In this document: piece by piece, positions 1,287 through 16,590 of the stretch | Layout of the letters: the number at the start of each line of letters is the position of its first letter | How positions within the stretch are numbered: position 1 is the stretch's first letter | From: Patescibacteria group bacterium | GTDB lineage: Bacteria; Patescibacteriota; JACPGU01 | Direction: 5' to 3' | NCBI GenBank assembly: GCA_028718745.1 | Contig: JAQULF010000004.1 | Location: 1-63,675, forward strand | Length of the DNA stretch: 63,675 nt | Position numbers and translations under genes: made by a program | The notes under the pieces: model-generated | Database searches by the model: none | The model's input: only the letters and a program-made list of their open reading frames with translations | Told to the model about the DNA's origin: nothing

Positions 1287-3686
1287 ATGGCAAAAAACTC
1301 TTCAAACAAAAAGGTTGCGTTACCAAAGAAGCACAGACTTTTCCTATCGGATAACGCAGTAGAGATTTTAGGGAAAAGATACCTCAAGAAAGACGCCGAA
1401 GGCAATCCAATAGAGAAACCGGAAGCCATGTTTGAAAGAGTTGCTCATCATATTGCCGAAGGCGATCTCAATTTTGAAAGCTCAAAGGATAATGTAAAAA
1501 ACACCGAAATCGAGTTTTATAACACCATGGTTGATCTCGATTTTTTGCCAAATTCTCCGACTTTACGCGGCGCGGGAAGATCAATTCACCAGCTTTCCGC
1601 TTGTTTTGTCTTGCCCATTGAAGATGATATGGAAGGAATTTTTAATTCATTAAAGAATATGGCGCTGGTACATAAAGGCGGAGGAGGAACAGGATTTTCT
1701 TTCGGAAGAATCCGTCCCGAAGGCGATACCGTGGGCACTACCGGAGGAGTTGCCGGCGGGCCGCTGGGCTTTATGCAGATATTTAATACTACCGGAGGGG
1801 AGCTCATGCAGGGAGGGACTCGCGTAGGAGCCAATATGGGAATTTTACCCGTTCATCATCCCGATATTCTAAAATTCATTGACGCTAAGCAGGATAATAA
1901 ATCCTTTCAAAATTTTAATTTTTCTGTTGCCATCACCGACGATTTTATGAAAAAAATGGAGAAAGGCGAGAATTATGATTTGATTAATCCCCGCAATAAA
2001 GAAAAATGGGGGTCTTTGAATGCCAAGGATGTTTTTGAAAAAATGGTGAATAATGCTTGGAAGAATGGCGATCCGGGAATAATTTTTATCGACCGAATCA
2101 ACAAAGACAATTTTACGCCTCAACTGGGTGAAATTGAAAGCACCAATCCTTGCGGCGAACAGCCACTCTTACCTCACGAATCTTGCAATCTTGGTTCAAT
2201 TAACTTGGCTAATATGATTAAGGGCAAGAATATCGACTGGGATCATTACAAAAAAACCATTTATACGGCCGTACATTTCCTTGACAATGTCATTGAAATG
2301 AATAAATACAGAGTTCCGGAAATTGAAACAACAACCAAAGGAAATCGAAAAATCGGCCTGGGAGTTATGGGCTGGGCGGATATGTTAATTCGATTGGGAA
2401 TCCCGTACAATAGTGAAGAAGCAACCAAATTGGCCGAAAAAGTAATGAAATTTCTTCAGGAAGAGGGGAGAAAGGTTTCAATCGAATTGGCTAAGACCAG
2501 AGGCGTTTTTCCAAATTGGAAAGGGAGCGTTTGGGAAAAGAAAAAGATCAAGGTTCGCAATGCCGCCGTTACTACTATCGCGCCTACCGGAACGCTTTCT
2601 ATGATTGGCAATTGCTCGGGAGGAATTGAGCCACTCTTCGCCGTAGCTTATAGCAAAAAATCCATCTGGCAAAAAGACGGCACCGCCAAAGTGGAACAAT
2701 TCTTTGTTAATCCATTATTTGAATTTTTTGCAAAAAAAGAAGGTTTCTGGTCAGAAGATTTGGTCAAGAAAGTGGCTAAGAAAAATTCTATCCAGGATAT
2801 TGCTGAAATTCCAGCCAAATGGAAAAAGGTATTTGTTACCTCTCATGATATTGCGCCTGAATGGCATCTGAAAACCCAGGCAGCTTTTCAAAAATATACG
2901 GATAACGCCGTTAGTAAAACGATTAATTTTCCTAATGAGGCGACCGTGGATGATGTTCGGCAGGCTTATCTTCTTTCCTATAAATTGGGCTGCAAAGGCA
3001 CTACTATATATAGAGATGGCAGCAAAGATACCCAGGTATTTACAACGGAGGCAACCTATAAAGATAAAGACAAGAATCCGCCGGCTGGCGGAGAAGAACC
3101 AAAGAGAGAATTAACTCCTCGCAAAAGACCAAAAGTTACTCATGGGATTACCGAGAAAGTAAAAACCGGCTGCGGCAATCTGTATGTCACGATTAATTTT
3201 GACGAATTTGGACCCTTTGAGGTTTTTACCGCAATGGGAAAAGCCGGCGGCTGCGCTTCGTCACAGCTAGAAGCGCTTGGGCGAATTGTATCATTTTCAT
3301 TGCGCGCCGGATTGCCGGTTGCTGAAATTATCGATCAGCTGCGCGGGATTCGTTGTCCTTCGCCAATTTGGCAGGAGGGTGATCTAATTCTTTCTTGTTC
3401 GGATGCTATCGCGAAGGTTCTAACTTCTCATACCGGATCAGCAGAACAGCCAAAACTTTTTGAAAATGGAAAAAGAAAAACCGATGAAATTCCCGTAGCT
3501 AAGCCGGAAGTAGCTAAAGTGGAGCAGGATCAAAATAAATTCCTTCATGAATTAGCCACCAAGCAACCGGGGGAAATTTCTGGTGTAACAAAAACCATGG
3601 CAACCTGCCCAGACTGCGGCTCCAGCCTCGAACACAAGGAAGGTTGTTTGCTTTGCAATGTTTGCGGGTTCTCAAAATGCGGATAG
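1287..3686 (+). CDS. nrdJ: Class II (adenosylcobalamin-dependent) ribonucleotide reductase
   Basis: 799 aa; NPCGEQPLLPHESCNLGSINL active-site block, TIAPTGTLS, YRDGS, C-terminal CxxC...CxxC zinc-ribbon tail. Confidence 0.93.
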   Translation: MAKNSSNKKVALPKKHRLFLSDNAVEILGKRYLKKDAEGNPIEKPEAMFERVAHHIAEGDLNFESSKDNVKNTEIEFYNTMVDLDFLPNSPTLRGAGRSIHQLSACFVLPIEDDMEGIFNSLKNMALVHKGGGGTGFSFGRIRPEGDTVGTTGGVAGGPLGFMQIFNTTGGELMQGGTRVGANMGILPVHHPDILKFIDAKQDNKSFQNFNFSVAITDDFMKKMEKGENYDLINPRNKEKWGSLNAKDVFEKMVNNAWKNGDPGIIFIDRINKDNFTPQLGEIESTNPCGEQPLLPHESCNLGSINLANMIKGKNIDWDHYKKTIYTAVHFLDNVIEMNKYRVPEIETTTKGNRKIGLGVMGWADMLIRLGIPYNSEEATKLAEKVMKFLQEEGRKVSIELAKTRGVFPNWKGSVWEKKKIKVRNAAVTTIAPTGTLSMIGNCSGGIEPLFAVAYSKKSIWQKDGTAKVEQFFVNPLFEFFAKKEGFWSEDLVKKVAKKNSIQDIAEIPAKWKKVFVTSHDIAPEWHLKTQAAFQKYTDNAVSKTINFPNEATVDDVRQAYLLSYKLGCKGTTIYRDGSKDTQVFTTEATYKDKDKNPPAGGEEPKRELTPRKRPKVTHGITEKVKTGCGNLYVTINFDEFGPFEVFTAMGKAGGCASSQLEALGRIVSFSLRAGLPVAEIIDQLRGIRCPSPIWQEGDLILSCSDAIAKVLTSHTGSAEQPKLFENGKRKTDEIPVAKPEVAKVEQDQNKFLHELATKQPGEISGVTKTMATCPDCGSSLEHKEGCLLCNVCGFSKCG

Positions 3687-3721
3687 TAAGTAGTAAGTAG
3701 TAGGTAGTAAGTATTAAGTAG
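3684..3721 (+). repeat. Tandem GTAG-containing word array (GTAGTAA/GTAGTAG)
   Basis: TAGTAAGTAGTAAGTAGTAGGTAGTAAGTATTAAGTA begins at the nrdJ stop codon; 29/30 inverted match to 11631-11660. Confidence 0.8.
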
Positions 3722-3751
3722 GGGTTTGATTTTATCAAACCCTGTTTTTTT
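3716..3751 (+). terminator. nrdJ terminator with REP-like GTAG + palindrome architecture
   Basis: GTAG-GGGTTTGAT-TTT-ATCAAACCC followed by TGTTTTTTT. Confidence 0.7.
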
Positions 3752-3898
3752 GCCTAAGATCACCCAATAATCCTTGACGGCATCTTAAAAATCTGCTATA
3801 ATTAGCCAAAATCAAAACAAAATTTACCCCGTGAAATTTCTGAAAGAAATATTTCACCGGGGGCCTTTTATCTAAAAAGTAAACAACGGGGTAAATTC

Positions 3899-5149
3899 AT
3901 GTTTAGATTCAAAAAGGTTTTTTTTATTTTCGCTCTAACATTAATCGCGCTTTTATCAAGCTGCTCTTTTGCTGTGCCAAAAGCAAAGGGCGCGATAAAT
4001 CGCGCCCCTACAAATTATAATTATGATTTGATTTCTCAATCAGCTTATCCTTCAACCTTAGAACCGGGAGCAACCACCAATGTTTGGATAGAAGTAAAAA
4101 ATACCGGCAACCAGATTTGGCAGAAAAATGGCACTACCGCAGTAAGACTAGGTTCCGGTTCAGCCTATGGCAATCGAAACCAAAAAAGGGACTATGATTC
4201 AGAATTTGCCGGTTCCGACTGGCTTTCTGCCAATAGGCCTTCGGCTATTTCTAATGACACAGTTGCACCCGGAGAAACTACGCGGTTTCAATTTAACATT
4301 AAAGTTCCGAATAATCCCGGCAATTACAAAGCTTATTTTACGCCCGTAGTTGACGGCGTAGCTTGGATGAAAGACATTGGCCTCTATTGGCAGATCACCG
4401 TCAAGGGCAATGGCGCTAATCCGATTGATAAAAATCTTAGCCAAACCGGCACTGTAAATAGTACGGCAACCATTTATCAAACTAGCGATCTAATCAATGA
4501 TTTTGCTCCGGCAGTAGTTAAGATCGTCTGCAAAGCCAGCTCAAGATACTGGAGCCAAGGTTCGGGAACTCTTTTTCACAACTCTGATGGCGATCCGAAT
4601 CTTCCCGAATACTATATCATAACCAATCTGCATGTGGTTCAAACAGATGACGGCTCGGTTTCCAATTGCGATATCAAAATCTTTCCGGATTATAAAAATA
4701 GCGATCGCTACTTAACTTTTACAAGCCAAGGATACAAAGATTACGGCGATAATTTAGACTTCGCTATCTTGGAACCAAAGGTTCACCCCGCCACCGGCGG
4801 GGTAAATTCTAGCAAGGCCTCTGCCGGCACATTTGCCGATCTGGCGCGCTACGCAGAGGAAGATAGTAGAATAGCGGGAGGAGATCTTACTCAAGAAAAC
4901 ATTGGCGAAAGAATGATAGTTTTTGGATACCCGGAAAACGGCGGGCTTTTCGTTAGTGAAGGGAATATCGTGGGCTACGAAACCTATCAAAGTTCAGAGT
5001 ATCTGGACACTTCCGCGCTTTTGCGCCATGGCAACTCTGGGGGATTGGCGGTTAATTCTTACGGCCAAATCCTCGGCATCCCAACCTTTGTCAAAGGAAA
5101 TATTGGGATGGTTTTGGATATGGATTATTTGGCAAGCAAGGTTTTTTAA
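3899..5149 (+). CDS. Secreted lipoprotein, trypsin-like (S1 family) serine protease with N-terminal beta-sandwich-like domain
   Basis: Signal peptide with lipobox LLSSC; catalytic-triad-like TNLHVV, DFAIL, GNSGGLAV. Confidence 0.75.
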   Translation: MFRFKKVFFIFALTLIALLSSCSFAVPKAKGAINRAPTNYNYDLISQSAYPSTLEPGATTNVWIEVKNTGNQIWQKNGTTAVRLGSGSAYGNRNQKRDYDSEFAGSDWLSANRPSAISNDTVAPGETTRFQFNIKVPNNPGNYKAYFTPVVDGVAWMKDIGLYWQITVKGNGANPIDKNLSQTGTVNSTATIYQTSDLINDFAPAVVKIVCKASSRYWSQGSGTLFHNSDGDPNLPEYYIITNLHVVQTDDGSVSNCDIKIFPDYKNSDRYLTFTSQGYKDYGDNLDFAILEPKVHPATGGVNSSKASAGTFADLARYAEEDSRIAGGDLTQENIGERMIVFGYPENGGLFVSEGNIVGYETYQSSEYLDTSALLRHGNSGGLAVNSYGQILGIPTFVKGNIGMVLDMDYLASKVF

Positions 5150-5150
5150 T

Positions 5151-5262
5151 GTTGGTTCAATGCTCCCGCATTGAACCATGAATGTACAATAACGCATTAA
5201 AAAATCTTTTTAGAAACTTCAAGATGTACATATTAGGTTCAAATCAGGAGATTTGAACCAAC
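5151..5262 (+). mobile_element. 112-bp REP-doublet (REPIN/MITE-like) element, copy 1
   Basis: Terminal inverted hairpins GTTG-GTTCAATG-CTCCCG-CATTGAAC-C and GGTTCAAAT-CAGGAG-ATTTGAACC-AAC; 110/112 identical to 6689-6800; lies between the protease stop and its terminator. Confidence 0.7.
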
Positions 5263-5281
5263 GAATGACAAATACGAATTT

Positions 5282-5306
5282 GTTCGGAATTATTCCGAAC
5301 TTTTTT
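5282..5306 (+). terminator. Rho-independent terminator (protease gene), displaced by the 112-bp element
   Basis: GTTCGGAAT-T-ATTCCGAAC followed by TTTTTT. Confidence 0.7.
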
Positions 5307-5322
5307 GTGTCATATGTCTACA

Positions 5323-5350
5323 TTGCAATAAGAATTGTGAAGGGTATAAT
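5323..5350 (+). promoter_or_regulatory. Sigma-70-type promoter for thyX
   Basis: TTGCAA, 16-nt spacer, TATAAT; 27 nt upstream of the ATG. Confidence 0.5.
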
Positions 5351-5377
5351 TAAAATAAATAATACTAAATCTTTCTC

Positions 5378-6670
5378 ATGAAGATTTTCATTTATGATGA
5401 ATTCGGACCGGAAAACACGGCCATGATGCAGGCGCTTTATTCCAGAAGCGCCGAAAGTGTTGAGAAGCATGCCGAGCAGGTAAAATCCACCGGATCCGGC
5501 AAATTTATGGAGAAATTCTATGTCGGTTACGGACATTCCAGCATCGCCGATTGCGGAAGCACGACGGTTTTTATTGAACAAATAAGTATTTTGGCAGACA
5601 AAGCTTTGCAAGATTGGCCACTTTATTCGGGACAAGAAACCAGCACTCGCTATGTCGATATGGCCAAACAAGCCATCATTGACCCGATTGGTAACAAAGA
5701 ATCAAAAGAGATTTTGGACAAATGGATGGCTTTTTATGTGGGAAGCCAGGAGGAAGTCGAAAAGCATTTGATGAAAAAATATCCCAAAAAGCCGGATGAA
5801 GACGAGGCCGTTTATGGGAAAGCGATTAAAGCCAGATGTTTCGACAGTTTGCGCGGTTTTTTGCCGGCCGGAATTACGACGCAATTAAGTTGGCACACCA
5901 ATCTTCGCCAAGCCGCGGACAAATTAGCAACTTTGCGATATCATCCTTTGGCAGAAGTTAGAGAAATGGAAGAAAAAATACTTTCAGCTCTTCAAGAAAA
6001 ATATCCGAGCAGTTTCAGCCACAAGCTTTATGACGAGCAGGAAAAATACAGAAAAATGGTGGGGGAGAATTATACTTATTTCGGCGAGCAAAAGTTGGCC
6101 AAAGATTTTTCTTTCACAACGACAATTGATCCGAAAGAGTTAAGTGAATATAAAACGCTGATTGAGAATCGACCGGAAAAAACCAATCTGCCATATTTTT
6201 TGGCGGACTTGGGATTAAATAATTTTGAGTTCTATCTCGACTACGGATCGTTCCGTGATATTCAAAGGCACCGCAATGGCGTTTGCCGAATGCCACTTTT
6301 GACCACCAAATTTGGTTTTCATCAATGGTATTTGGAGCAATTACCCGATTCAGTTCGTAGCGAAGCGGAGAAATTAATTGAGGAACAAAAAACTGCAATT
6401 GCAAAACTAAAAGCTAGCAAAGAAGATTTGCAGTATTATATTGCAATCGGTTTTAATGTTGTCTGCCAAGTTTCTTACGGATTGCCGGCAACTATTTATA
6501 CAGTTGAATTGCGTTCTGGAAAAATGGTGCATCCAACTTTGCGCGTCATAGCGCATCAGATGTGCGATGCATTGACTGAAAAATTTCCAGATCTTATGCT
6601 TCACGCCGACAAATCTCCGAGCGATTGGGATATTCGAAGGGGATTGCAGGATATCAAGCCAAAAGAGTAA
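5378..6670 (+). CDS. thyX: Flavin-dependent thymidylate synthase ThyX-like, double-length (two Thy1-like halves)
   Basis: GHSSI, SGQETSTRYV (SxxxxSxRY-like) in first half; RHR motif (FRDIQRHRNG) only in second half; sits between nrdJ and tmk-glyA. Confidence 0.65.
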   Translation: MKIFIYDEFGPENTAMMQALYSRSAESVEKHAEQVKSTGSGKFMEKFYVGYGHSSIADCGSTTVFIEQISILADKALQDWPLYSGQETSTRYVDMAKQAIIDPIGNKESKEILDKWMAFYVGSQEEVEKHLMKKYPKKPDEDEAVYGKAIKARCFDSLRGFLPAGITTQLSWHTNLRQAADKLATLRYHPLAEVREMEEKILSALQEKYPSSFSHKLYDEQEKYRKMVGENYTYFGEQKLAKDFSFTTTIDPKELSEYKTLIENRPEKTNLPYFLADLGLNNFEFYLDYGSFRDIQRHRNGVCRMPLLTTKFGFHQWYLEQLPDSVRSEAEKLIEEQKTAIAKLKASKEDLQYYIAIGFNVVCQVSYGLPATIYTVELRSGKMVHPTLRVIAHQMCDALTEKFPDLMLHADKSPSDWDIRRGLQDIKPKE

Positions 6671-6688
6671 TTATAAATCATTTCCAGC

Positions 6689-6800
6689 GTTGGTTCAATG
6701 CTCCCGCATTGAACCGTGAATGTACAATGACGCATTAAAAAATCTTTTTAGAAACTTCAAGATGTACATATTAGGTTCAAATCAGGAGATTTGAACCAAC
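6689..6800 (+). mobile_element. 112-bp REP-doublet (REPIN/MITE-like) element, copy 2
   Basis: Same orientation as copy 1, 2 mismatches (A/G at two positions). Confidence 0.7.
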
Positions 6801-6844
6801 AATTAGATATTCGCAGGGGATTACAAGATATTAAAGAAAAATAA
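6801..6844 (+). pseudogene. Relic of a thyX 3' end
   Basis: 6806-6844 reads DIRRGLQDIKEK*, versus current thyX end DIRRGLQDIKPKE* (6629-6670); 25/30 nt identical in the core; in-frame TAG upstream inside the repeat; ends 2 nt before the tmk ATG. Confidence 0.6.
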
Positions 6845-6846
6845 AC

Positions 6847-7521
6847 ATGCAAAAAGGTAAATTTATTGTTATTGAAGGAACCGATGGTTCCGGTAAGGCG
6901 ACGCAAATTGAATTGTTATCCGAGAGATTAAAAAAAGAAGGTTTAGAAATAGAAACCGCCGATTTTCCTCAATATGATAATTTTTCAAGCGGTTTCGTAG
7001 CCAAATACCTGCGGGGTGAATATGGTACGCTTGATGAAGTTGGGCCATATCGAGGATCAATTTTTTTCTCTGTCGATCGTTATGATAAATCATTTGATAT
7101 TAAAAAATGGTTAGATGAAGGCAAAACAGTTTTTAGCAATCGCTATACTTCCGCCAATATGGGACACCAGACAGCCAAGATTGAAGGTAAAGAAAAAAGA
7201 GACGAATTTCTGGACTGGCTTAATCATTTGGAATTTGATATTTTTGAGATTCCTAAACCGGATTTAACAATTTTGCTTTTTGTGCCTCCGGATATCGGAC
7301 AAAAATTAGTCGATAGAAAAGAAGCGCGAGAATATACGAAAGGCAAGAAAAGAGACATTCACGAAGCTGATATTAATCATTTGAAAAAGGCCTCGGAAGC
7401 ATTTCTTTATGTAGCGGAAAAATATGGCTGGACTGTCATCGATTGCACCGAAAATGGCCAACTTCTTTCTCGCGAAAAAATCCATGAAAAAATATATGAA
7501 GTAGTTAAAAAAATAATTTAA
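6847..7521 (+). CDS. tmk: Thymidylate kinase
   Basis: P-loop IVIEGTDGSGKATQ, DRY-like SVDRYDKS, lid region. Confidence 0.93.
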   Translation: MQKGKFIVIEGTDGSGKATQIELLSERLKKEGLEIETADFPQYDNFSSGFVAKYLRGEYGTLDEVGPYRGSIFFSVDRYDKSFDIKKWLDEGKTVFSNRYTSANMGHQTAKIEGKEKRDEFLDWLNHLEFDIFEIPKPDLTILLFVPPDIGQKLVDRKEAREYTKGKKRDIHEADINHLKKASEAFLYVAEKYGWTVIDCTENGQLLSREKIHEKIYEVVKKII

Positions 7522-7526
7522 AACCC

Positions 7527-8726
7527 ATGAAAGACAAACAAATTGAGAAGCTTATAAAGGCGGAAGAGGAGAGGCAGGAAAAAACTATTTCCCTGATCGC
7601 TTCGGAAAATTATGTTTCCGACGATGTTCTGACTGCGCTTGGATCCAAATTTACCAACAAATACTCCGAAGGTTATCCGGGTAAAAGATATTATAAGGGC
7701 CAAACTTTTACCGATGAAGTGGAAAATCTTTGCCAAGAAAGAGCGCTAAAACTATTTAAGCTTTCACCTGAAAAATGGAGCGTTAATGTTCAGCCACTTT
7801 CCGGTTCACCGGCAAATCTGGCTGTTTATGTGGCGCTCGTACCGCTGGGTGAAAAAGTAATGGGTATGTCGCTCGATCACGGCGGACATTTGACTCACGG
7901 CCACAAAGTTTCGGTTACCGGAAAATTTTGGCATCAGATTCCTTATGGCGTAAATAAAGATACAGAGGTTATCGATTATGATGAAATAAAGAAAATTGCG
8001 CTAGAAGAAAAACCAAAAATGATTATCGCCGGATATACCGCCTATCCTAGAATTGTAGATTTTAAAAAATTCAGAGAGATTGCTGACGACAACAATGCGA
8101 TTCTTATGGTAGATATGTCTCACTTTGCCGGACTCGTCGCGGGAGAAGCTTATCCATCTCCATTTGAATATGCGGATATTGTAACTACTACCACGCATAA
8201 AACTTTGCGAGGTCCGCGAAGTGCTTTAATTTTTGCTCGCAAAGATAAAACTCAAACCAGCGCCAAGGGTAATGAAGTCAGTTTTGCTGATCTGATAGAC
8301 AAAGCCGTATTTCCCGGACTTCAAGGCGGTCCGCACATGAATCAAATCGCAGCAGTTGCCGTGGCGCTAAAAGAAGCAGATACACCGGAGTTTAAAAAGT
8401 ATGCTGAACAAGTTATAAAAAATGCTCACACATTGACAGATGAATTGAAAAAGTTGGGCTGGAAAATTATTTCCGGAGGAACAGATAGTCATCTTATTCT
8501 GGTAGATACATTTATGGGGGGCGAAGGAATGAGTGGGGCCGAAGCTAGTGATAAATTGGAAAAAGAGGGGATTATCGTCAATAAAAATACGATTCCAAAT
8601 GAAACTCGAAGCCCAATGGATCCTTCCGGCATTCGCCTCGGCACCGCCGGCGAAACCACAAGAGGAGCAAAAGAAAAAGATATGGTGAATCTAGCGAAAC
8701 GAATTGATGAGGCGTTAAGAAAATAA
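7527..8726 (+). CDS. glyA: Serine hydroxymethyltransferase
   Basis: SLIASENY, PLP-lysine block TTTTHKTLRGPRSALIF. Confidence 0.95.
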   Translation: MKDKQIEKLIKAEEERQEKTISLIASENYVSDDVLTALGSKFTNKYSEGYPGKRYYKGQTFTDEVENLCQERALKLFKLSPEKWSVNVQPLSGSPANLAVYVALVPLGEKVMGMSLDHGGHLTHGHKVSVTGKFWHQIPYGVNKDTEVIDYDEIKKIALEEKPKMIIAGYTAYPRIVDFKKFREIADDNNAILMVDMSHFAGLVAGEAYPSPFEYADIVTTTTHKTLRGPRSALIFARKDKTQTSAKGNEVSFADLIDKAVFPGLQGGPHMNQIAAVAVALKEADTPEFKKYAEQVIKNAHTLTDELKKLGWKIISGGTDSHLILVDTFMGGEGMSGAEASDKLEKEGIIVNKNTIPNETRSPMDPSGIRLGTAGETTRGAKEKDMVNLAKRIDEALRK

Positions 8727-8806
8727 ACTCGAGCTTTGCATATTTACAATTTGGCTGTTTTAAGCTAGAATTAAACAAAAAATCCAAGAAAGCGGGGCGA
8801 CTACCG

Positions 8807-9751
8807 GTGAAAAAAAACCTAAAGAAAGTAGTGGTAATTGCTGTACACGATAAAACGATTCACGCTGACGAAGTGTTCGCGGTAGCAATCCTGAAAATGT
8901 TGCTTAACATACTATACAAAGACGATCCGAAGAAAATCCGGATCGTGCGCACGCGTGACAAGAAGCTACTCGCCGAAGCAGATTTCCGCATTGATGTTGG
9001 AATGGAATACGATGGCTCAAACAACTGGGATCACCATCAGTTCGATACGGATAAGGGCGAAGGAGTTCGGGAGAATGGCATCCCATTTTCGTCGGCCGGA
9101 CTCCTGTGGCACATATATGGACCGCAAGTCTGTGGCGATGCAGATGTCGCGGAAATCGTCGAGAAAAAGCTGATATGGTCCATCGACATACAGGACCACA
9201 ACAAAGGCATCCCATCATTTCCGCACTACAAAAAAGCCCAGCCATTCACAGTTTCGAGCCTTATCGCGATGTTCAACCCGGTATGGAACGATGGCGGCGC
9301 AGACCCAGATAGAGACTTCGAGCAAGCGGTGCTCGTCGCGGAAACGATTCTCAAAAGAACGATCGCCTATGCCGAAGCGGTCGTCGCAGCAGATTCGGCC
9401 GTTTACATGGCCAGCCTGGAAGCAGATCGCAAGCATAAGCTCTATGTGGTGCTTAAAGACAATGTGCCATGGAGAGAAATCATTCATCGTTATGTCCCAA
9501 AAAGCATGCTCTATGTGATCTGCCGAGTCCCAGGCAAAAAGGATGAGCGCTGGGTCGCATATTGCATCGAAGACAAGGGGAAACATCGCAAGAGCTTCCC
9601 GGCAAAATGGGCCAATCGCGAAGGAGAAGCCCTGGCAAAAGTAACCGGAGTGGTCGACGCTTTATTCTGTCACGCCGGTCTCTTTACCTGCAGTGCGACA
9701 ACGCTTGAAGGTGCTATCGCGCTCGTGGAGCTCGCCATCGCGGCCGAGTGA
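8807..9751 (+). CDS. MYG1/UPF0160-family metal-dependent hydrolase (GC-rich gene)
   Basis: GTG start; HDKTIHADEVFAVAILK, VRTRD, DVGMEYDGSNNWDHHQF; 52% GC in hand-counted 9301-9360. Confidence 0.75.
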   Translation: MKKNLKKVVVIAVHDKTIHADEVFAVAILKMLLNILYKDDPKKIRIVRTRDKKLLAEADFRIDVGMEYDGSNNWDHHQFDTDKGEGVRENGIPFSSAGLLWHIYGPQVCGDADVAEIVEKKLIWSIDIQDHNKGIPSFPHYKKAQPFTVSSLIAMFNPVWNDGGADPDRDFEQAVLVAETILKRTIAYAEAVVAADSAVYMASLEADRKHKLYVVLKDNVPWREIIHRYVPKSMLYVICRVPGKKDERWVAYCIEDKGKHRKSFPAKWANREGEALAKVTGVVDALFCHAGLFTCSATTLEGAIALVELAIAAE

Positions 9752-9789
9752 ACCCGATCGAATCACCAATGAAAAATGAAACAACAAAC

Positions 9790-9816
9790 CCGGGGCCTCA
9801 AAACCCCGGTTTTTTT
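9790..9816 (+). terminator. Rho-independent terminator
   Basis: CCGGGG-cctcaaaa-CCCCGG followed by T7. Confidence 0.75.
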
Positions 9817-9843
9817 ATTTTTTAAAAATGATAAAATGTTTTT

Positions 9844-10380
9844 ATGTTAATTGTTTTCACCGGAAACGGCAAAGGGAAAACTTCTGCGGCGCTGGGAACG
9901 GCGTTACGCTCTTTGGGTTGGAATAGAAAAGTGGCTATTATTCAATTTATAAAAGGTAACAAAGCAACGGGCGAGTGGCAATTCGGGAAATTCGGGACTA
10001 ATTCGGGACAATTCGTGGTAAAACAGTTTTTTGATGACAAACAATATTCAATTTCTGAAAAAAGTATTTTAGAAAATCCGGAATACAAAAAAAGCTGTAA
10101 GCAAGCTTGGAATTTTGCCAAAGAAACAATTTTAAGTAAAAAGTACGATCTCATCATTTTAGACGAAATCAACAACGCAATTCACCTTAAGCTTTTAGAC
10201 GAGAATGAGACCCTGCATTTTGTAGAGACACACGGCCGTGTGTCTGCATTTGATATAATTATGACCGGCCGCAATGCTTCGCAAAAGCTAATCGATATCG
10301 CTGATATGGTTACCGAAATGAAAGAAATAAAGCATCCCTTTCAAAAAGGAGTAAAGGCGAAAGAGGGGATTGATTATTAA
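9844..10380 (+). CDS. cobA: ATP:cob(I)alamin (corrinoid) adenosyltransferase, CobA/BtuR type
   Basis: FTGNGKGKTSAALGTALRSLG...IQFIKG, ILDEINNA; matches the cofactor need of nrdJ. Confidence 0.8.
   Translation: MLIVFTGNGKGKTSAALGTALRSLGWNRKVAIIQFIKGNKATGEWQFGKFGTNSGQFVVKQFFDDKQYSISEKSILENPEYKKSCKQAWNFAKETILSKKYDLIILDEINNAIHLKLLDENETLHFVETHGRVSAFDIIMTGRNASQKLIDIADMVTEMKEIKHPFQKGVKAKEGIDY
9979..10018 (+). repeat. In-frame AATTCGGGA word array inside cobA
   Basis: caATTCGGGAaATTCGGGActaATTCGGGAcaATTCGtgg encodes QFGKFGTNSGQFV; same word as intergenic palindromes 17811-17913 and 41961-42044. Confidence 0.8.
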
Positions 10381-10385
10381 AAAAC

Positions 10386-10411
10386 AAGATGCCCGTTTTA
10401 AGGAGCATCTT
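10386..10411. terminator. Bidirectional hairpin between convergent genes
   Basis: AAGATGC-12 nt-GCATCTT flanked by A-run and T-rich tract. Confidence 0.45.
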
Positions 10412-10442
10412 TGTGTGTCGTCGATCGGGAAATCGTGAAGGG

Positions 10443-10853
10443 CTATGACTTAGTCCTAAACAGACTAACCCTTACAGGCCGCTTCACTTTTTCGGGTTGT
10501 CGAAGATAGACATTGGTCGGTGAAAATTGTCTCACGGATTCTCTGGCCCGTTTTGCTCTCGAATTCTCCCTTGCCCAAATAGCCCTGATGCGAGTTATCT
10601 GCTCCTCCGATAGTTTCGGTTCGAACTCATTCGTCATCATCTTCGAGAGTCCGCCACTTTTGATAGTAGCGATGTGTTTAGCCAAAATCTCCCACTCGCT
10701 TTCCGAATCTACATATTCAATCAGGCTTCTTGCAAGATTCAGAATTTTGACTCTCATGGCATCGGTCTTAACACATGCATTGCGGTACTTTGTCCATTCT
10801 TCAGTTAGGGCCGCGGATGTTTCGGCAAAAACAGTTGCCCTGTCCTTTTCCAT
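10443..10853 (-). CDS. Hypothetical protein (GC-richer islet)
   Basis: 136-aa ORF; GAGGAG 7 nt upstream of the ATG; protein-like composition, unlike the overlapping + strand ORF. Confidence 0.45.
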   Translation of the reverse strand: MEKDRATVFAETSAALTEEWTKYRNACVKTDAMRVKILNLARSLIEYVDSESEWEILAKHIATIKSGGLSKMMTNEFEPKLSEEQITRIRAIWARENSRAKRARESVRQFSPTNVYLRQPEKVKRPVRVSLFRTKS

Positions 10854-10946
10854 GGAATTACTCCTCTGTGTGGATTAAAAAACCAAGTTGTAATATAATA
10901 ATAGCACCATTATGCGATTTTTGTCAATAGAAACTAACATAATTTT

Positions 10947-11180
10947 ATGAAGATAAGTGTGCATCTTACGCCAAACGCCAAAAAATCCGAGATTCTCGGT
11001 GAACAAGACGACCTATTCGGTGGTAAGGTTTTGCGCGTCAAGGTCGCCGCACCTCCGATTGAGGGTAAAGCGAACAAAGAGCTGATAAACATTTTGAGCG
11101 AACATTTTGATGTTCCTAAAAGCAAAATCTCAATTCTTTCCGGCGAAAAATCTAGAAATAAAATCGTAGAGATAAAATAA
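10947..11180 (+). CDS. DUF167/YggU-family protein
   Basis: 77 aa; V.PNAKKSEI...LRVKVAAPPIEGKANKELI..LS..F.V.KS.I.I.SG..SR.K.VEI pattern. Confidence 0.8.
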   Translation: MKISVHLTPNAKKSEILGEQDDLFGGKVLRVKVAAPPIEGKANKELINILSEHFDVPKSKISILSGEKSRNKIVEIK

Positions 11181-11241
11181 AAGAACCCCTGCGGATTCTT
11201 TCAAAAAAAATGAAACTGGTTCGCTAGTTGTAAAAACTAGC

Positions 11242-11508
11242 TTAGAGGGTTGGAAACTTCAAGGGTTCTGCGGTTTTGATCCTTGAAGCCATTTCATCTG
11301 CAAAACTCCTCTCTTCGATGGCTTTTTTGACGCGATTGAACTCATCAAGAGTTTTAATACAAATGAGGGCTGTGCTTAGAACAATCCTTTCAGCAATTCT
11401 TTTTTGTGTTTTATCCACTACCATTGCCTGATCAACCCAATTTAATACTTCCAAAATCCTGTCCACATTGCCAGATGCCTTGCGCAAACAATTTACTAAT
11501 TCTCCCAT
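11242..11508 (-). CDS. Hypothetical protein
   Basis: 88-aa ORF; GGAGG 6 nt upstream of the ATG. Confidence 0.4.
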   Translation of the reverse strand: MGELVNCLRKASGNVDRILEVLNWVDQAMVVDKTQKRIAERIVLSTALICIKTLDEFNRVKKAIEERSFADEMASRIKTAEPLKFPTL

Positions 11509-11630
11509 GAAATGCCTCCGCAGAAGTTGGATTGTGGTTTTGGATTAACGACTTTCTATTCTACACCAAAACTCAATAAAATGCAATTGAAAAAACAGGG
11601 AAAGTGTTATATTGTAATATTGTTGTATTT

Positions 11631-11660
11631 TACTTACTACCTACTACATACTACTTACTA
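11631..11660 (-). repeat. GTAG word array, inverted copy, directly upstream of the ileS start
   Basis: Reverse complement TAGTAAGTAGTATGTAGTAGGTAGTAAGTA matches 3684-3713 at 29/30. Confidence 0.8.
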
Positions 11661-11668
11661 CCACCCCC

Positions 11669-14600
11669 ATGCCCTTCAAACCCGTCAATCCAAAAATCAG
11701 TTTTCCCGAACTTGAAAAAGACATATTAGGCTTTTGGGAAAAGGAAAAAATATTTGAGAAATCCTTGAATAAAGAAAGCCCCAAGGGTTCGTTTGTATTT
11801 TACGAAGGACCTCCAACGGCGAATGGGAAACCGGGCTTGCACCATGTTCTTGCTCGCGCTTTCAAAGATGTTTTACCTCGCTATAAAACAATGCGGGGTT
11901 TTACCGTCCCTCGCAAAGCCGGTTGGGATACGCATGGATTACCGGTAGAAATTGAGGTTGAAAAAAAGCTGGGCATTTCCGGCAAACAAGATATTGAAAA
12001 AATCAAAGCAACTCCCGAAGAAAGCATTATCGAATTTAATAAACTCTGCAAAGAAAGTGTTTTCGCTTATAAAAAGGAATGGGAGGAAATGACAAAGCGC
12101 ATGGGTTTTTGGCTGGATATGGATCATCCCTATATTACTTATGAAAATAATTACATCGAATCGGTTTGGTGGGTCGTATCTCAAGCATTTAAAAAAGGTT
12201 TATTTTTCAAAGGCCACAAAATCGTCCCATATTGCCCTCGTTGCGGGACAGCTCTTTCTTCGCACGAATTAGCCCAAGGGTACAAGGAAGTTGAGGATAA
12301 GTCAATTTATATAAAATTTGAACTTGAAGATGAGCCGGGTACTTTTTTTCTTGTCTGGACAACCACACCATGGACGCTTCCTGGAAATATAGCGTTAGCG
12401 GTAAACAAAGATATCGAGTACATTAAGCTTACTTATACAAAATGGGAGCATGGCGGACCCGAATGGGAAAATAGGGATGTTGCAAAAGGTGAAGCCACTA
12501 TAATTGCTTCTAGACAATTTTTCGAGCAACATAAATCTGATAAAAATCTTCATGACAAATATAATATGGGAGATTATAAAACCATAAAAGGTTCGGAATT
12601 GCTTGGAAAAAAATATAAACAACTTTATCCCTTTATTATCCCAGAAAAAAAAGCTTTTTATGTTATTTCCGGCGACTTCGTTAGTGATTCTGATGGCACA
12701 GGCATCGTTCATATCGCTCCGGCCTATGGCGAAGAAGATTATGTTGTTGGAAAAGAAAATGATCTTCCGGTTTTAATGACTTTGGACAAAGAAGGCAAGA
12801 TGCTTCCCGAGATTACATCTTGGGCTGGCCTTGGGGCAAAAGAAAGCGACCCATTGATCATTGAAGATCTGAAAAAAAGAGATCTGCTTTTTGATACAGA
12901 AATGTATAAACATGACTATCCTTTTTGCTGGCGCTGCGACACGGCCTTGCTTTATTATGCCAAGGATTCTTGGTTCATTGAGATGACGAAGCTCAAAGAC
13001 GAATTGGTAAAAAATAATGAAAATATCAATTGGGTTCCGGACAATATCAAACATGGGCGTTTTGGCGAATGGCTCGAGGGTGTCAAAGATTGGGCGATCT
13101 CTAGGGATAGATATTGGGGAACGCCACTTCCGGTTTGGCAGTGCGAAAAGTGCAGAGAACTAAAATGCATTTCCTCAATTGAAGAGCTAAAAAATTCATC
13201 GGACTTTGATTCGACCTATCCGTCCGATTTGTCCTTAGATCTACACAGACCTTATATAGATAAGATAACCTTTGCTTGTGATTGCGGAGGAGTGATGACT
13301 CGCGTTCCAGAGGTTATGGATGTATGGCTTGATAGTGGCACAATGCCTTATTCACAATTGCATTATCCTTTTGACCCCAGCAGTATATCCTCGCAAAGCT
13401 CGGATAACTACGGGGCAGGAAACAAAGAGATGCCTTTGGCGTTACCAAAATACTTTCCCGCAGACTTCATTTCTGAAGCCGTGGACCAAACCCGCGGTTG
13501 GTTTTATACGCTTCATGCGATTTCAACATTTCTTGGCATGGGAAATTGTTTTAAAAATGTCATTTGTCTCGGTCATATTCTTGATAGCAAAGGACAGAAG
13601 ATGAGTAAATCTAAAGGCAACATGATGGATCCGATGGAAGTTGCCAATGTTCATGGTTTTGACGCGATCCGCTGGTATATGTACACCAATAACCAGCCCG
13701 GCGAACCAAAATTGGTTTCCGATGAAGCGATTAAAGACCAAGTCCGCAGATTCCTACTTATTTTGTGGAATACTTATAGTTTTTTTGTAACATACGCGAA
13801 CATAAAAGATCTCAAAACTCAAATGTCAAATGTCAAAACTACAACTCAAAACTCAAATCTTTTTGATGCTTGGTTGATTTCTAGAAAGAACAAACTAATT
13901 AAAGAAGTTACTAATCACTTAGAGAAGTATGATATTTTTAGTGCCACAAGACGCATAGAAGAATTTGTTGTTGAACTTTCTACTTGGTATCTCCGCCGAA
14001 ATAAGAAGCGAGATGATGCGGAATTTTTACAAGTTTTACATGAAACATTGGTTGATATTGTTAAACTTTTAGCGCCTTTTACGCCTTTTGTTGCTGAAGA
14101 AATTTATAAAAATTTAACAGGCAAAGAATCTGTTCACTTAGATTCATGGCCTGAATTTGACGAGAGCCTGATAAATACTGCTCTAGAACACGAAATGAAA
14201 TTGGCGCGAGAAATTATCGAAGCCGGACACGCTATCAGAAAAGAAAAAGTAATTAAAGTCCGCCAACCTCTATCCGCTATCGAAGTGCTAAATTTCAAAC
14301 CAAAATTTGATTTGAATGATATTATATTAGACGAGCTTAATGTCAAAAAAATTGATTTTGTAGATACATTTTCCGAAGGCGGCGATTGGTTCAAAAAAGA
14401 AAAGATGCTCGGCGACTTATCTGTCCCATTAGTCTCATTGAATCTCTCCATCACCCCCGATCTCAAATCCGAAGGCGATATGCGCGAAATCGTGCGCCTC
14501 ATTCAAGACGCTCGCAAAGAAGCAAGATACGCCTTTTCCGATGAGGTAAAATGCTATTTCCAAACCGATTCACAAGAGCTGAAAGATGTCATTGCTAAAT

Positions 14601-14722
14601 TTAGCGAAGAAATAAAAAAACAAACCATCCTTTCCGATCTAAAAGAGGGGATTGAAAAAGGAGATATTGAAAAAGAAAGCGAAATAGACAGACAAAAAAT
14701 TACGATTTCTTTGAAAAAATAA
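11669..14722 (+). CDS. ileS: Isoleucyl-tRNA synthetase (type 2)
   Basis: 1017 aa; PPTANGKPGLHHV (HIGH-type), KMSKSKGN, editing domain, zinc-binding CxxC pairs. Confidence 0.95.
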   Translation: MPFKPVNPKISFPELEKDILGFWEKEKIFEKSLNKESPKGSFVFYEGPPTANGKPGLHHVLARAFKDVLPRYKTMRGFTVPRKAGWDTHGLPVEIEVEKKLGISGKQDIEKIKATPEESIIEFNKLCKESVFAYKKEWEEMTKRMGFWLDMDHPYITYENNYIESVWWVVSQAFKKGLFFKGHKIVPYCPRCGTALSSHELAQGYKEVEDKSIYIKFELEDEPGTFFLVWTTTPWTLPGNIALAVNKDIEYIKLTYTKWEHGGPEWENRDVAKGEATIIASRQFFEQHKSDKNLHDKYNMGDYKTIKGSELLGKKYKQLYPFIIPEKKAFYVISGDFVSDSDGTGIVHIAPAYGEEDYVVGKENDLPVLMTLDKEGKMLPEITSWAGLGAKESDPLIIEDLKKRDLLFDTEMYKHDYPFCWRCDTALLYYAKDSWFIEMTKLKDELVKNNENINWVPDNIKHGRFGEWLEGVKDWAISRDRYWGTPLPVWQCEKCRELKCISSIEELKNSSDFDSTYPSDLSLDLHRPYIDKITFACDCGGVMTRVPEVMDVWLDSGTMPYSQLHYPFDPSSISSQSSDNYGAGNKEMPLALPKYFPADFISEAVDQTRGWFYTLHAISTFLGMGNCFKNVICLGHILDSKGQKMSKSKGNMMDPMEVANVHGFDAIRWYMYTNNQPGEPKLVSDEAIKDQVRRFLLILWNTYSFFVTYANIKDLKTQMSNVKTTTQNSNLFDAWLISRKNKLIKEVTNHLEKYDIFSATRRIEEFVVELSTWYLRRNKKRDDAEFLQVLHETLVDIVKLLAPFTPFVAEEIYKNLTGKESVHLDSWPEFDESLINTALEHEMKLAREIIEAGHAIRKEKVIKVRQPLSAIEVLNFKPKFDLNDIILDELNVKKIDFVDTFSEGGDWFKKEKMLGDLSVPLVSLNLSITPDLKSEGDMREIVRLIQDARKEARYAFSDEVKCYFQTDSQELKDVIAKFSEEIKKQTILSDLKEGIEKGDIEKESEIDRQKITISLKK
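13811..13860 (+). repeat. In-frame word array (CTCAAAA / CAAATGT) inside ileS
   Basis: ctcaaaactcaaatgtcaaatgtcaaaactacaactcaaaactcaaatct encodes LKTQMSNVKTTTQNSNL; same words as the palindrome at 44428-44530. Confidence 0.7.
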
Positions 14723-14737
14723 TTAGATTTTTTTGTG

Positions 14738-14766
14738 TTGATATTGCCATTAAATTCTGATAAGAT
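14738..14766 (+). promoter_or_regulatory. Sigma-70-type promoter of a GC-rich islet
   Basis: TTGATA, 17-nt spacer, TAAGAT. Confidence 0.45.
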
Positions 14767-14839
14767 ATAAGCAACATAAGGTCGGCATCAGACTTTACTA
14801 CCTTAAAAATAAGCCCATTGGGCGAAAGGAGGCCACATC

Positions 14840-15565
14840 ATGTGGCCTTACATCATTGGTTTTCTGCTTCTTGTCGGCGGAATCTTCGGTTTGCGCAAAT
14901 ATCGCGAATACAAAAAAATGAAAAAGGCGATTGAGGATGAGAGGCAGGAAGTTATCAAAGAAAGAAAGATCGTGCTGGAAAACCTGGAAAACCCATCAAG
15001 GGAGGTAGTTTTATCTTCCTCTTCCAATCTGTATTCCCTTATCGGAGTTTATGATGATCCTTGCACTCCCGAATGGCACTGCTATCCCTCGTGGGTAGAC
15101 GAACTCGAAAGACGCCCATTCCGGCTCGAGTGGATTGGCACCACCCAGGAAAAACTCGTGGAATTAATAGATCGCTGGACCCGCATAAAAAACATATTCA
15201 TGAGCCTGGAAATAATGCGAAGACCGGAGGAAAGCGACGAGTGGGAAGTAGCCGAGAAATTGTTCAGGCGCGAATTGGAGATCCTCGGTTTCCCGCTCAC
15301 CTTCTTCGAAACCAGCGAAGAAGAAATTGCCAAGCTTGGCAAGAAATACAACGAATGTGAGGCCAAGAGAAATCTTGCATCCATTCGAAGATATGAGAAA
15401 AAAATTCTCGAACTCTTCGATAAAATGAGCGATGCACTGGGAAAAAGTGGCCTTGAAGAACAAGACATTGGAGTTAACCAGGTTGATATACACCTCATCA
15501 GTGCATTATCTGCAATCCAGAAGTTTCGGAAAACATACGATGAGATCAATTTGATGTTTCCTTAG
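14840..15565 (+). CDS. Hypothetical N-terminally membrane-anchored protein (GC-rich islet)
   Basis: 241 aa; AGGAGG 7 nt upstream; N-terminal TM helix WPYIIGFLLLVGGIFGL. Confidence 0.5.
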   Translation: MWPYIIGFLLLVGGIFGLRKYREYKKMKKAIEDERQEVIKERKIVLENLENPSREVVLSSSSNLYSLIGVYDDPCTPEWHCYPSWVDELERRPFRLEWIGTTQEKLVELIDRWTRIKNIFMSLEIMRRPEESDEWEVAEKLFRRELEILGFPLTFFETSEEEIAKLGKKYNECEAKRNLASIRRYEKKILELFDKMSDALGKSGLEEQDIGVNQVDIHLISALSAIQKFRKTYDEINLMFP

Positions 15566-15594
15566 GACAAAACCACCACGGAGGAGGTGATTGA

Positions 15595-15774
15595 ATGGAA
15601 CAAATGGTTTTTTGCCTTATGTTGCTCAAGGCATGGTTCTGTAATAATGCCATGGGCAATCCGGCCTTCTGGTGGATCGCCTTATGTTTGACAGCAATCA
15701 TGATCAGCGAGATCATACCGATCCGCACGAGAAGGCCACACTATTACCGAAGAAATCGGAGAAGGGTTTTTTAA
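15595..15774 (+). CDS. Small (59 aa) membrane protein with basic tail (below ORF-track cutoff)
   Basis: GGAGGAGGTG then ATG; hydrophobic AFWWIALCLTAIMISEII followed by RTRRPHYYRRNRRR. Confidence 0.4.
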   Translation: MEQMVFCLMLLKAWFCNNAMGNPAFWWIALCLTAIMISEIIPIRTRRPHYYRRNRRRVF

Positions 15775-15804
15775 CGCTTTTCTCCTGAACATTATTATAA
15801 TGAG

Positions 15805-15835
15805 AGGCTCGGTCTAAACCCCCGGAGCCTTTTTT
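15805..15835 (+). terminator. Rho-independent terminator of the islet
   Basis: AGGCTCGG...CC(G)GAGCCT followed by TTTTT. Confidence 0.6.
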
Positions 15836-15836
15836 C

Positions 15837-15865
15837 TTGACCAAAAACGGCCCATCTGATATAAT
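15837..15865 (+). promoter_or_regulatory. Sigma-70-type promoter for rplU
   Basis: TTGACC, exactly 17 nt, TATAAT. Confidence 0.65.
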
Positions 15866-15908
15866 GGTTCCAAAGAGGGCTTTTATTAATTCTTCAGGAG
15901 GAAGAAAA

Positions 15909-16220
15909 ATGTTTGCTGTTGTAAAAACAGGAGGGAAACAATATATCGTCAGAGAAGGAGATACGCTTGATATTGAGAAAATAGAGGGCAAGAAAGGCGA
16001 AAAAGCCTCTCTTGACCAGATTCTTCTGTTATCCACAGGGGATAGTATTAAGGTTGGCACCCCAACCGTAACAGGAATAAGGGTGGAAATAGAGATAGTT
16101 GACCAGTTCAAGGCCAAAAAGGTTGAGATGATCAAATATAAGAAAAAGACCGGTTACAGGAGAAAAAAGGGACATAGACAGAATAAGACTAAGGTAAAGA
16201 TACTAAAAATAAATGCTTAA
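15909..16220 (+). CDS. rplU: Ribosomal protein L21
   Basis: MFAVVKTGGKQYIVREGD start preceded by AGGAGG; 103 aa. The ORF-track start at 15837 overlaps the promoter. Confidence 0.9.
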   Translation: MFAVVKTGGKQYIVREGDTLDIEKIEGKKGEKASLDQILLLSTGDSIKVGTPTVTGIRVEIEIVDQFKAKKVEMIKYKKKTGYRRKKGHRQNKTKVKILKINA

Positions 16221-16350: not shown

Positions 16351-16369
16351 ACATTATAAAACACGATTT

Positions 16370-16564: not shown

Positions 16565-16590
16565 ATCCCGCCTTGGCGGGATAAAAAACT

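Follow-up and report, generated by a model that had tools for sequence, protein, structure and literature searches.

A GTTG-tagged REPIN pair around thyX and a relic of a second thyX beside tmk in a Patescibacteria contig

The REPIN-RAYT architecture is defined by inverted doublets of repetitive extragenic palindromic (REP) hairpins, termed REPINs, together with a gene for a REP-associated tyrosine transposase (RAYT) that is itself flanked by REPs (Bertels and Rainey, 2011; PMC3116915; PMC3337134). The REP superfamilies described carry a GTAG or CGTC terminal tetranucleotide (PMC3733652), and the partnership has so far been studied mainly in Pseudomonas and enterobacteria; a literature search found no paper describing REPINs in the candidate phyla radiation (CPR) or Patescibacteria. 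In this work we analyzed a 63,675-nt stretch of contig JAQULF010000004.1 of a small uncultured Patescibacteria group bacterium (the window, to which all coordinates refer; L-numbers denote loci on other contigs that were compared). In it the thymidylate-pathway gene thyX lies between two 112-bp repeats, R1 and R2, and the 3' end of a second thyX survives between R2 and tmk (Table 1).

R1 and R2 have the same orientation and agree at 110 of their 112 positions. The two mismatches fall at element positions 28 and 41, and the remaining 71 nt, element positions 42-112, are identical without interruption. Each copy starts with GTTG and a hairpin (GGTTCAATG-CTCCCG-CATTGAACC) and ends with the inverted hairpin and CAAC. 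The stems of the terminal hairpins measure 9-10 bp, and the imperfect terminal inverted repeat as a whole is 38 nt long, its arms (5151-5188 and 5225-5262) being 76% complementary. Folded as single-stranded DNA, the element forms three hairpins (-25.3 kcal/mol, z = -7.4), and the end pattern occurs four times in the window against an expectation of zero. The GTTG tag is invariant in nine of nine aligned ends and also occurs in related families of other metagenome-assembled genomes (MAGs); the GTAG and CGTC tags of the REP superfamilies are not matched. The window holds two doublets, R1 and R2, plus the REPs flanking a RAYT gene, while homologues of the whole element or of one half turned up on 11 metagenome contigs, for the most part between genes. 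Full-length examples lie between a tRNA-synthetase gene and a YraN-like gene (L134 399-511, 84%) and between rpsO and pnp (L138 2063-2165, 78%), and across the family the inner stem covaries and the TCCY loop is kept. A flanking duplication was sought at R1 and at the L134 and L138 copies and none was found, which rules it out as a general property of the family; R2 alone has one. Two other identities were considered and rejected. An integron attC site does not fit, as the ends GTTGGTT...AACCAAC reverse the R''/R' order of attC and inspection found no integrase nearby, and neither a tRNA nor an Rfam family was detected, the only RNA matches being chance microRNA hairpins far below threshold. 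The initial annotation had called the repeats REP doublets with inverted hairpins at both ends and had given the same identity of 110 in 112; our analysis agrees that they are REPINs, in which a REP hairpin with a GTTG tag is present as an inverted doublet, and a RAYT gene with homologous flanking REPs is present in the same window at 32931-33585.

This RAYT gene, some 26 kb from the repeats, is an open reading frame (ORF) whose product scores 104.9 bits against NCBIfam NF047646 (curated cut-off 80) and 36.9 against Pfam Y1_Tnp (cut-off 23). Its sole PDB relative is TnpArep of E. coli (4ER8), with which it aligns over the catalytic-tyrosine region. The hairpin GTTGGCTCCATGCTCCTGCGTGGAGCC at 32931-32957 recurs as its reverse complement at 33559-33585, and these flanks have in common with the ends of R1 and R2 a GTTGG start, a CTCCYG loop and the subterminal motif AATGT(A/T)CAATAA.GCATTAAAAA; the stems differ at two positions, at which the changes are compensatory. 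An exact 44-nt direct repeat (TAAACCTCTTTATAAATAAAAACTATTGCGCTATTATTATTTTT, 32826-32869 and 33652-33695) brackets the RAYT gene and its two REPs, enclosing also about 60 nt of extra DNA on each side, and looks like the footprint of an insertion of the RAYT unit; its second copy and the sequence downstream form a promoter-like TTGCGC-17-TATAAT. The likeness to the described REPIN-RAYT systems extends to two inverted REP hairpins of about 110 nt in all in an element that folds as a whole, to intergenic copies without target duplication, and to a HUH/Y1 transposase gene for about 180 amino acids between inverted REPs of the same type. The differences are the tag, GTTG instead of GTAG or CGTC (PMC3733652), the CPR/Patescibacteria-type host genome, the presence of two copies plus the RAYT flanks in 63.7 kb, and the fact that the copy pair brackets a gene.

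Beyond R2, the stretch 6806-6844 encodes DIRRGLQDIKEK followed by a stop, to be compared with DIRRGLQDIKPKE and stop at the end of the present thyX (6629-6670). Local alignment of the 46-nt spacer 6801-6846 with the thyX tail scores 22, whereas shuffles give 6.6 +/- 1.2 with a maximum of 15, and none of 20,000 reached 22. The thyX tail is also the best match of the spacer in the whole window (the runner-up scores 14), and the peptide DIRRGLQDIK occurs in the window only at the thyX tail and in the relic, in the same frame and with 177 nt between the two starts. The shuffles and the whole-window scan together rule out a chance similarity. The initial annotation, which had described the relic as a diverged duplicate of the thyX C-terminus (25 of 30 nt in the core) and had named a similarity without significance as the result that would speak against this, is thus borne out. 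It was also right about the ends of the relic: 2 nt separate its stop codon (6842-6844) from the tmk ATG at 6847, and on the 5' side the first in-frame stop is a TAG at 6749-6751 inside R2.

Over the first ten codons all five differences between relic and present tail are synonymous and in the third position (0 of 20 first and second positions and 5 of 10 third positions changed), and it is for this reason that the relic derives from the 3' end of a second, once-functional thyX. A dead local copy would also have changed at positions one and two, so the second thyX would have been functional for almost all of the divergence time; the near-identity of R1 and R2, with 2 differences in 112 positions, was likewise counted for a second gene. 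The ends differ, with EK in the relic against PKE in the tail, in a part that is also variable among ThyX homologues. It could be argued that the insertion of R2 copied about 40 nt of the thyX 3' end and that the downstream copy then decayed, as the RAYT unit has its exact 44-nt direct repeat and the duplication is in frame over its 177-nt interval. We regard this as highly unlikely, given that neutral decay would hit all codon positions (P of about 0.003 if a quarter of the sites changed, a rough estimate), that the R1, L134 and L138 copies lack a flanking duplication, and that the closest relative carries neither R2 nor relic nor tmk. A search for other thyX fragments in the window, for example beside AAA18 at 21168-21479, found none.

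Several CPR genomes share the order NusG-L11-dcd-AAA18-thyX-tmk-glyA, and in L121/L122, L142 and L143 the gap between thyX stop and tmk start is 0-2 nt, or the two codons overlap. The relic-tmk junction (TTACAAGATATTAAAGAAAAATAAACATGCAAAAAGG) is colinear with the thyX-tmk junction of L143 (TTACAAGATATTAAGGAAAAGAAATAACATGAAAAAAGG) and likewise with those of L121 and L142, hence relic, tmk and glyA represent the 3' portion of a canonical thyX-tmk-glyA operon with translational coupling between thyX and tmk, as the initial annotation had proposed in deriving the relic from a gene tightly coupled to tmk. A remnant of a second homologue is therefore found where related operons carry thyX. In L121, the contig with the closest Tmk, thyX is split at an A-rich run (7700-7740) into ORFs of 335 and 87 amino acids, probably by a sequencing frameshift.

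The piece to the left of the relic is a stand-alone module consisting of a terminator, its own promoter and thyX. L001 (run ERR4183325), the nearest relative of this thyX with ThyX 88% and GlyA 86-89% identical, aligns colinearly with the stretch of the window that reaches from 5272 to the end of the thyX stop codon, terminator hairpin and promoter included. In L001 glyA begins 25 nt after the thyX stop, with no REPIN, relic or tmk at that point, and the neighbours differ from those of the window on both sides of the module. The colinear block ends about 10 nt to the right of R1 and 18 nt to the left of R2. Two different versions of a CPR thymidylate operon meet here, the joint being no more than 5 nt from the CAAC at the outer end of R2; at this end Y1 transposases of the RAYT type would nick a REP substrate. 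The promoter that the annotation had assigned to thyX at 5323-5350 was recovered by a scan and is conserved in L001. Its placement of R1 between the protease stop and the protease's own terminator stands as regards the position and the presence of a hairpin, but its assignment to the protease gene is unproven: L001 carries this terminator together with the thyX promoter, beside sequence that L129 has 3' of the gene for the class II ribonucleotide reductase (RNR). The left flank of L001 includes 60 nt with 92% identity to the region just 3' of RNR in L129, part of which is a repeated hairpin. Homology of the terminator (5282-5300) and the spacer before it (5263-5281) to the protease 3' region of L129, or to the RNR 3' regions of L001 and L129, was considered and is too short to decide. 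A further hairpin element, GTCAT.C..GAGCACTGATGTA.TCATCAGTAAATC..GGA.TCCAG, with covarying outer stems, lies at 7745-7790 and 16818-16860 in L129 and at 1-45 in L001; in lineage relatives it sits 3' of RNR and of L1.

Three lineage relatives, L126, L128 and L129, were identified via the fast-evolving protease. They have the gene order FtsZ-RNR-protease...ileS...SecE-NusG-L11-L1 in common with the window (NusG 85-88%, L11 88-92% and RNR 84-88% identical), with the protease followed directly by cobA or a PF1765-like gene and then by ileS. Homology to L129 resumes at a T run and the cobA promoter, at about 9810. This direct succession in three syntenic relatives marks the whole block 5150-9809, with R1, thyX, R2, the relic, tmk, glyA and the MYG1-family gene, as an inserted island, a patchwork of thymidylate-synthesis genes between the protease gene and cobA. 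The locus that the initial annotation took as resident was therefore not native either, since the three relatives lack everything from R1 to MYG1.

Across CPR the genes of this pathway form a mosaic. Organisms with about 56% identical NusG and L11 share 80-85% GlyA, 64-77% ThyX and 77% Tmk identity with the window; the closest of their ThyX proteins reach 76-77%, a comparison that leaves the lineage relatives' ThyX aside and in which synonymous sites are saturated. L002 and L121 have NusG proteins 91% identical but Tmk and AAA18 proteins only 24% identical, and GlyA transfer among Patescibacteria has been reported (PMC12455944). In the window dcd and AAA18 are found at 21480-22538 on the minus strand, inverted, 15 kb from thyX and between L1 and L10; the L121 type of AAA18 (63%) is combined there with the L002 type of dcd (67%), so that the pathway is a mosaic gene by gene. 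A 14.7-kb inversion (6801-21479) restoring dcd-AAA18-thyX-tmk-glyA was considered and rejected, as it would break the FtsZ-RNR-protease-cobA-ileS-NusG-L11-L1 order of L128 and L129, and in the extended locus of L128 no dcd or AAA18 was found after L1.

The initial annotation had a repeat-flanked thyX cassette replacing a resident, tmk-coupled thyX. Its second thyX and the coupling to tmk stand; the direction of the event does not follow from them, and we favour, at about even odds, the thyX module as the one to arrive second. If it was, the module could have come as a REPIN-bounded unit, or alternatively as a circle of the module and one REPIN pasted into a resident REPIN. The resident thyX, made redundant by the newcomer, would then have been lost up to the REPIN end, and its last 13 codons, including the stop, would have been kept for the A-rich translation-initiation region of tmk that they carry; that the truncated gene's final codons remain is probably due to this region. 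tmk and glyA are now probably transcribed from the thyX promoter through R2, whose hairpins are not followed by a T run. For the arrival of the module second speak the association of both of its joints with a REPIN, compared with one joint of the tmk piece, and its different neighbours in L001. The G+C content at third codon positions (GC3) of thyX, 43%, also departs from that of tmk and glyA (28 and 36%), which resemble L121-type operons (26 and 34%). GC3 was nevertheless dropped as a marker of a foreign piece because tmk is lower than glyA in canonical operons too.

Several observations weigh against the module as newcomer. Because thyX of L001 runs directly into glyA, the relic-tmk piece could be the newcomer instead, and a single insertion of R2, relic and tmk into the L001 arrangement would also yield the window. 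None of the relatives carries an older thyX between protease and tmk, no second R-thyX-R unit is present among the matches listed, and the module of L001 comes without a REPIN. The composition of thyX is host-like, with no hint of a recent import. Synonymous sites are saturated at about 50% for all pairs and no trace of a crossover was seen inside glyA or thyX, and for these two reasons phylogeny cannot order the events. The stem of the RAYT flanks differs from that of R1 and R2, so we can only infer that this RAYT is their cognate enzyme; we know of no system in which RAYT-driven movement of a REPIN-bounded gene has been demonstrated, although models for RAYT activity exist (PMC3733652).

The converse history would have the stand-alone arrangement of terminator, promoter and thyX followed by glyA as the resident, with a foreign fragment captured downstream that starts 13 codons before the end of the donor thyX and carries tmk and perhaps part of glyA. 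One end would have joined illegitimately at the outer end of a resident R2 and the other by homology in or beyond glyA, that is by homology-facilitated illegitimate recombination, and R1 would be an independent recent copy of R2. In its favour, one insertion between the end of thyX and the start of glyA turns the L001 arrangement into that of the window, ThyX (88%) and GlyA (86-89%) are both closest to L001, the composition of thyX matches host core genes, and the closest match of Tmk (77%) is in an organism with NusG and L11 about 55% identical, no match above 77% having been found even with lineage relatives in the database. Yet GlyA is nearly equidistant from L001 and L121 (88.8 against 86.4% of amino acids, 79 against 78% of nucleotides), glyA shows no internal crossover, the junction of tmk with glyA has a canonical look, and a GC3 lower in tmk than in glyA is common to canonical operons and hence no mark of import. 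The position of R1 at the other end of the L001-colinear block would moreover be a coincidence, and on balance we find this direction rather doubtful. Under either direction the central result stands, a junction of two diverged operon versions at the outer end of R2.

A mis-join is a third matter that weighs on the proposed history, as the contig could have been joined wrongly within the 71-nt identical stretch. The source is evidently a metagenome contig, the identity over element positions 42-112 could mislead a de Bruijn graph built with a small k, and no identical protein was found on another contig, an exact-protein look-up of the window ThyX having returned none; the collections searched hold no closer relative. 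That the contig was mis-threaded through the repeat of two loci or strains, with the module really elsewhere, is nonetheless improbable in our judgment, for two mismatches and unique flanks tell R1 and R2 apart, common final k-mers or read lengths exceed the 112 nt of the repeat, and the synteny on both sides of the island fits a single organism. Even a mis-join would leave the relic beside a REPIN and tmk real.

In Vibrio type VI secretion system (T6SS) effector-immunity arrays in situ displacement leaves the displaced 3' end behind (PMC5361080). Our locus resembles these arrays and Rhs C-terminal displacement in that the new homologue stands upstream and the displaced 3' end is kept before its coupled downstream gene, in the mosaic relatedness of neighbouring genes and in homology-facilitated illegitimate recombination as a proposed mechanism. 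It differs in that a housekeeping pathway gene is concerned instead of a toxin, that the joint lies at the end of a mobile hairpin element, and that the displacement may have run either way. REP-mediated tandem duplications occur in Salmonella and E. coli, and there as here a REP element is found exactly at the novel joint, but the known cases join REP to REP within one genome while this joint links diverged versions of a gene. Composites flanked by miniature inverted-repeat transposable elements (MITEs) or insertion sequences (ISs) are a further comparison, the MITE-flanked integrons of Acinetobacter and integron mobilization units being of this kind. As in these, two near-identical non-autonomous elements (R1 and R2, 98% identical) flank in direct orientation a cargo, thyX, that has its own promoter. 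Here, however, the elements are of the REPIN/Y1 type, the outer flanks of the R1...R2 unit share only AAT, which is no convincing target-site duplication, and the R-thyX-R unit was not found elsewhere among the matches listed. To our knowledge composite mobilisation has not been shown for REPIN/Y1-type elements.

The prophages e14 and phage 21 integrate into the 3' end of icd and bring a replacement end. The resulting duplicated 3' end, with mostly synonymous divergence on either side of the inserted DNA, is like the situation at R2; here there is no integrase or att-type element, no recombinase gene was found in 3000-9800, and the insert between the two thyX ends is 135 nt of spacer and REPIN. 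It is conceivable that only the thyX tail, the 18-nt spacer and R2 (6629-6805, 177 nt) arrived, on a circle imprecisely excised from a relative with a REPIN 3' of thyX, and that a single crossover in the thyX 3' end left the native tail behind as the relic, as such prophages do. RAYT and IS200-type enzymes use single-stranded circles (PMC3733652; PMC6006769), and the L001 tail has the length of the relic and differs from it at 6 of 30 nt, against 8 of 30 nt and one codon from the present tail. These counts are far too small for significance; thyX is uniformly L001-like to its end, a clean loss of tmk in L001 would be needed and the mechanism is undocumented, all of which makes this course of events very improbable.

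More speculatively, REPINs in ultra-small bacteria may be the boundaries of a RAYT-driven system of gene shuffling, an idea that we consider unlikely. Nicks made by the RAYT at the GTTG tags of two adjacent REPINs would release the DNA between them (here a REPIN and thyX with its promoter) as a single-stranded circle, which would be pasted beside another REPIN. Both the exact 44-nt repeat that brackets the RAYT unit and the relic at R2 would then be footprints of one process.

The features of the locus are collected in Table 1. The local order is RNR, protease, R1, terminator, promoter, thyX, R2, relic, tmk, glyA, MYG1 and cobA. R1 starts 1 nt past the protease stop codon and lies 115 nt upstream of thyX, R2 follows 18 nt downstream of it, and ThyX is of the 430-amino-acid type common in Patescibacteria.

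Table 1. Features of the thyX island and of the RAYT unit in the window.
Feature	Position	Strand	Evidence or remark
Class II ribonucleotide reductase (RNR)	1287-3686		first in local gene order
Trypsin-like protease	3899-5149		between RNR and R1
Island block R1 to MYG1, 4.66 kb	5150-9809		absent between protease and cobA/ileS in L126, L128, L129
R1, REPIN (REP doublet)	5151-5262	+	GTTG and hairpin 5151-5177; inverted hairpin and CAAC 5236-5262
Intrinsic-terminator-like hairpin and T run	5282-5306 (hairpin 5282-5300)	+	scan; kept in L001 directly 5' of thyX promoter
thyX promoter-like site TTGCAA-16-TATAAT	5323-5350	+	scan; conserved in L001
thyX, 430 aa	5378-6670	+	Pfam Thy1; colinear with L001 over window positions 5272-6658, 80% nt, 88% aa
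Present thyX C-terminus, DIRRGLQDIKPKE and stop	6629-6670	+	counterpart of relic
R2, second REPIN copy	6689-6800	+	110/112 identical to R1; direct orientation; 18 nt past thyX stop
Relic, DIRRGLQDIKEK and stop	6806-6844	+	last 12 codons and stop of second thyX; in frame with thyX
tmk, thymidylate kinase	6847-7521	+	77% identical to L121 Tmk, which directly follows thyX there
glyA, serine hydroxymethyltransferase	7527-8726	+	5 nt after tmk
MYG1-family gene	8807-9751	+	GC 51%; last island gene; G+C-rich terminator hairpin 9789-9809
REP 5' of RAYT, GTTG-GCTCCATG-CTCCTG-CGTGGAGC-C	32931-32957	+	homologous to R1/R2 ends
RAYT gene, 179 aa	33002-33541	+	HIH and DYIYNNPVKKG (YIYNNPV) motifs in translated ORF
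Inverted REP 3' of RAYT	33559-33585	-	homologous to R1/R2 ends

None of thyX, tmk and glyA is preceded by an evident Shine-Dalgarno sequence. In each REPIN the right arm includes AGGAG-AT-TTG (5253-5381 and 6788-6844 regions), the TTG of R1 opening a 42-codon frame that ends in an ATGA overlap with the thyX start and that of R2 an 18-codon frame running through the relic to its stop, 2 nt before tmk. This is probably coincidence, the spacing from AGGAG to TTG being too short and the TTG lying inside a hairpin stem. The MYG1-family gene, which has a GC content of 51% and a GC3 of 57.5%, against 40% for the window, and is followed by a G+C-rich terminator, is probably a separate acquisition within the island.

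Other repeats were noted in the window and beyond it. A second REP-like family with a GTAG tag (reverse complement TGTAGGGGCGCGATTTATCGCGCCC) has copies at 3988-4012, 36396-36420, 36474-36498 and 46286-46310, all four within reading frames: one in the protease, towards its N-terminus, two in ORF 36279-39185 and one in ORF 45969-46715 for a pseudouridine synthase. In L126, L128 and L129 the spacer between RNR and protease is filled with similar GTAG hairpins, which also adjoin copies of the R1/R2 family in L139 and L140. A palindromic repeat of about 100 nt made of ACGAAT/ATTCGT units (GGTCTACGAATTACGAAT...ATTCGTAATTCGTAGA) occupies four intergenic sites (17249-17347, 27907-27999, 33738-33778 and 54846-54941), one of them beside the RAYT unit. 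At 35075-35174 a 50-nt piece is 94% identical to 26880-26929 within a U32 peptidase gene (tblastn 33 amino acids, 61%), a gene-fragment relic in a 1.4-kb stretch without a long ORF (34900-36280); L134 also matches the window at 34995-35173 (78%). Around the RAYT region (28078-32790 and 36279-39185) there are two VirD4/TraG-like coupling-protein genes and a T4SS-pilin-like gene, which fit the type IV secretion system reported for Patescibacteria (PMC12102498). Among the matches listed, a Brocadiaceae (anammox) MAG, CAZPUD01, has more than 90 copies of GTTGGTTCAATCGTCCACGATTGAACC (L003-L119), variants of it occur in other Brocadiaceae and Anammoxibacter MAGs, Saccharibacteria MAGs have the same hairpin as GTTG...CAAC doublets of about 110 nt, and in MAG JAZDFN01 several such hairpins are combined into mosaics. 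REPs with a GTTG tag are therefore widespread outside the described GTAG and CGTC superfamilies.

The REPIN-RAYT system and the presence of REP elements at rearrangement joints are of known kinds; new here are the GTTG tag, the CPR host, the housekeeping gene between a pair of REPINs and the coincidence of the scar with a REPIN end. As a single locus on one contig, with an event that may have run in either direction, it is a good illustration more than a discovery, and a clear but fairly ordinary scar of a gene swap between related bacteria. It adds GTTG as a third terminal tag of REP families and widens their range to CPR and anammox genomes. With their tiny genomes, CPR/Patescibacteria rely on a minimal complement of nucleotide genes, and the locus is a physical scar showing that even thyX, tmk and glyA are exchanged between lineages. 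If the idea of gene shuffling were true, housekeeping genes, those of the thymidylate pathway among them, would be moved or replaced by a domesticated transposase, and if REPIN ends are preferred joints, or pairs of REPINs move genes, the REPIN-RAYT partnership would have a role in the remodelling of operons.

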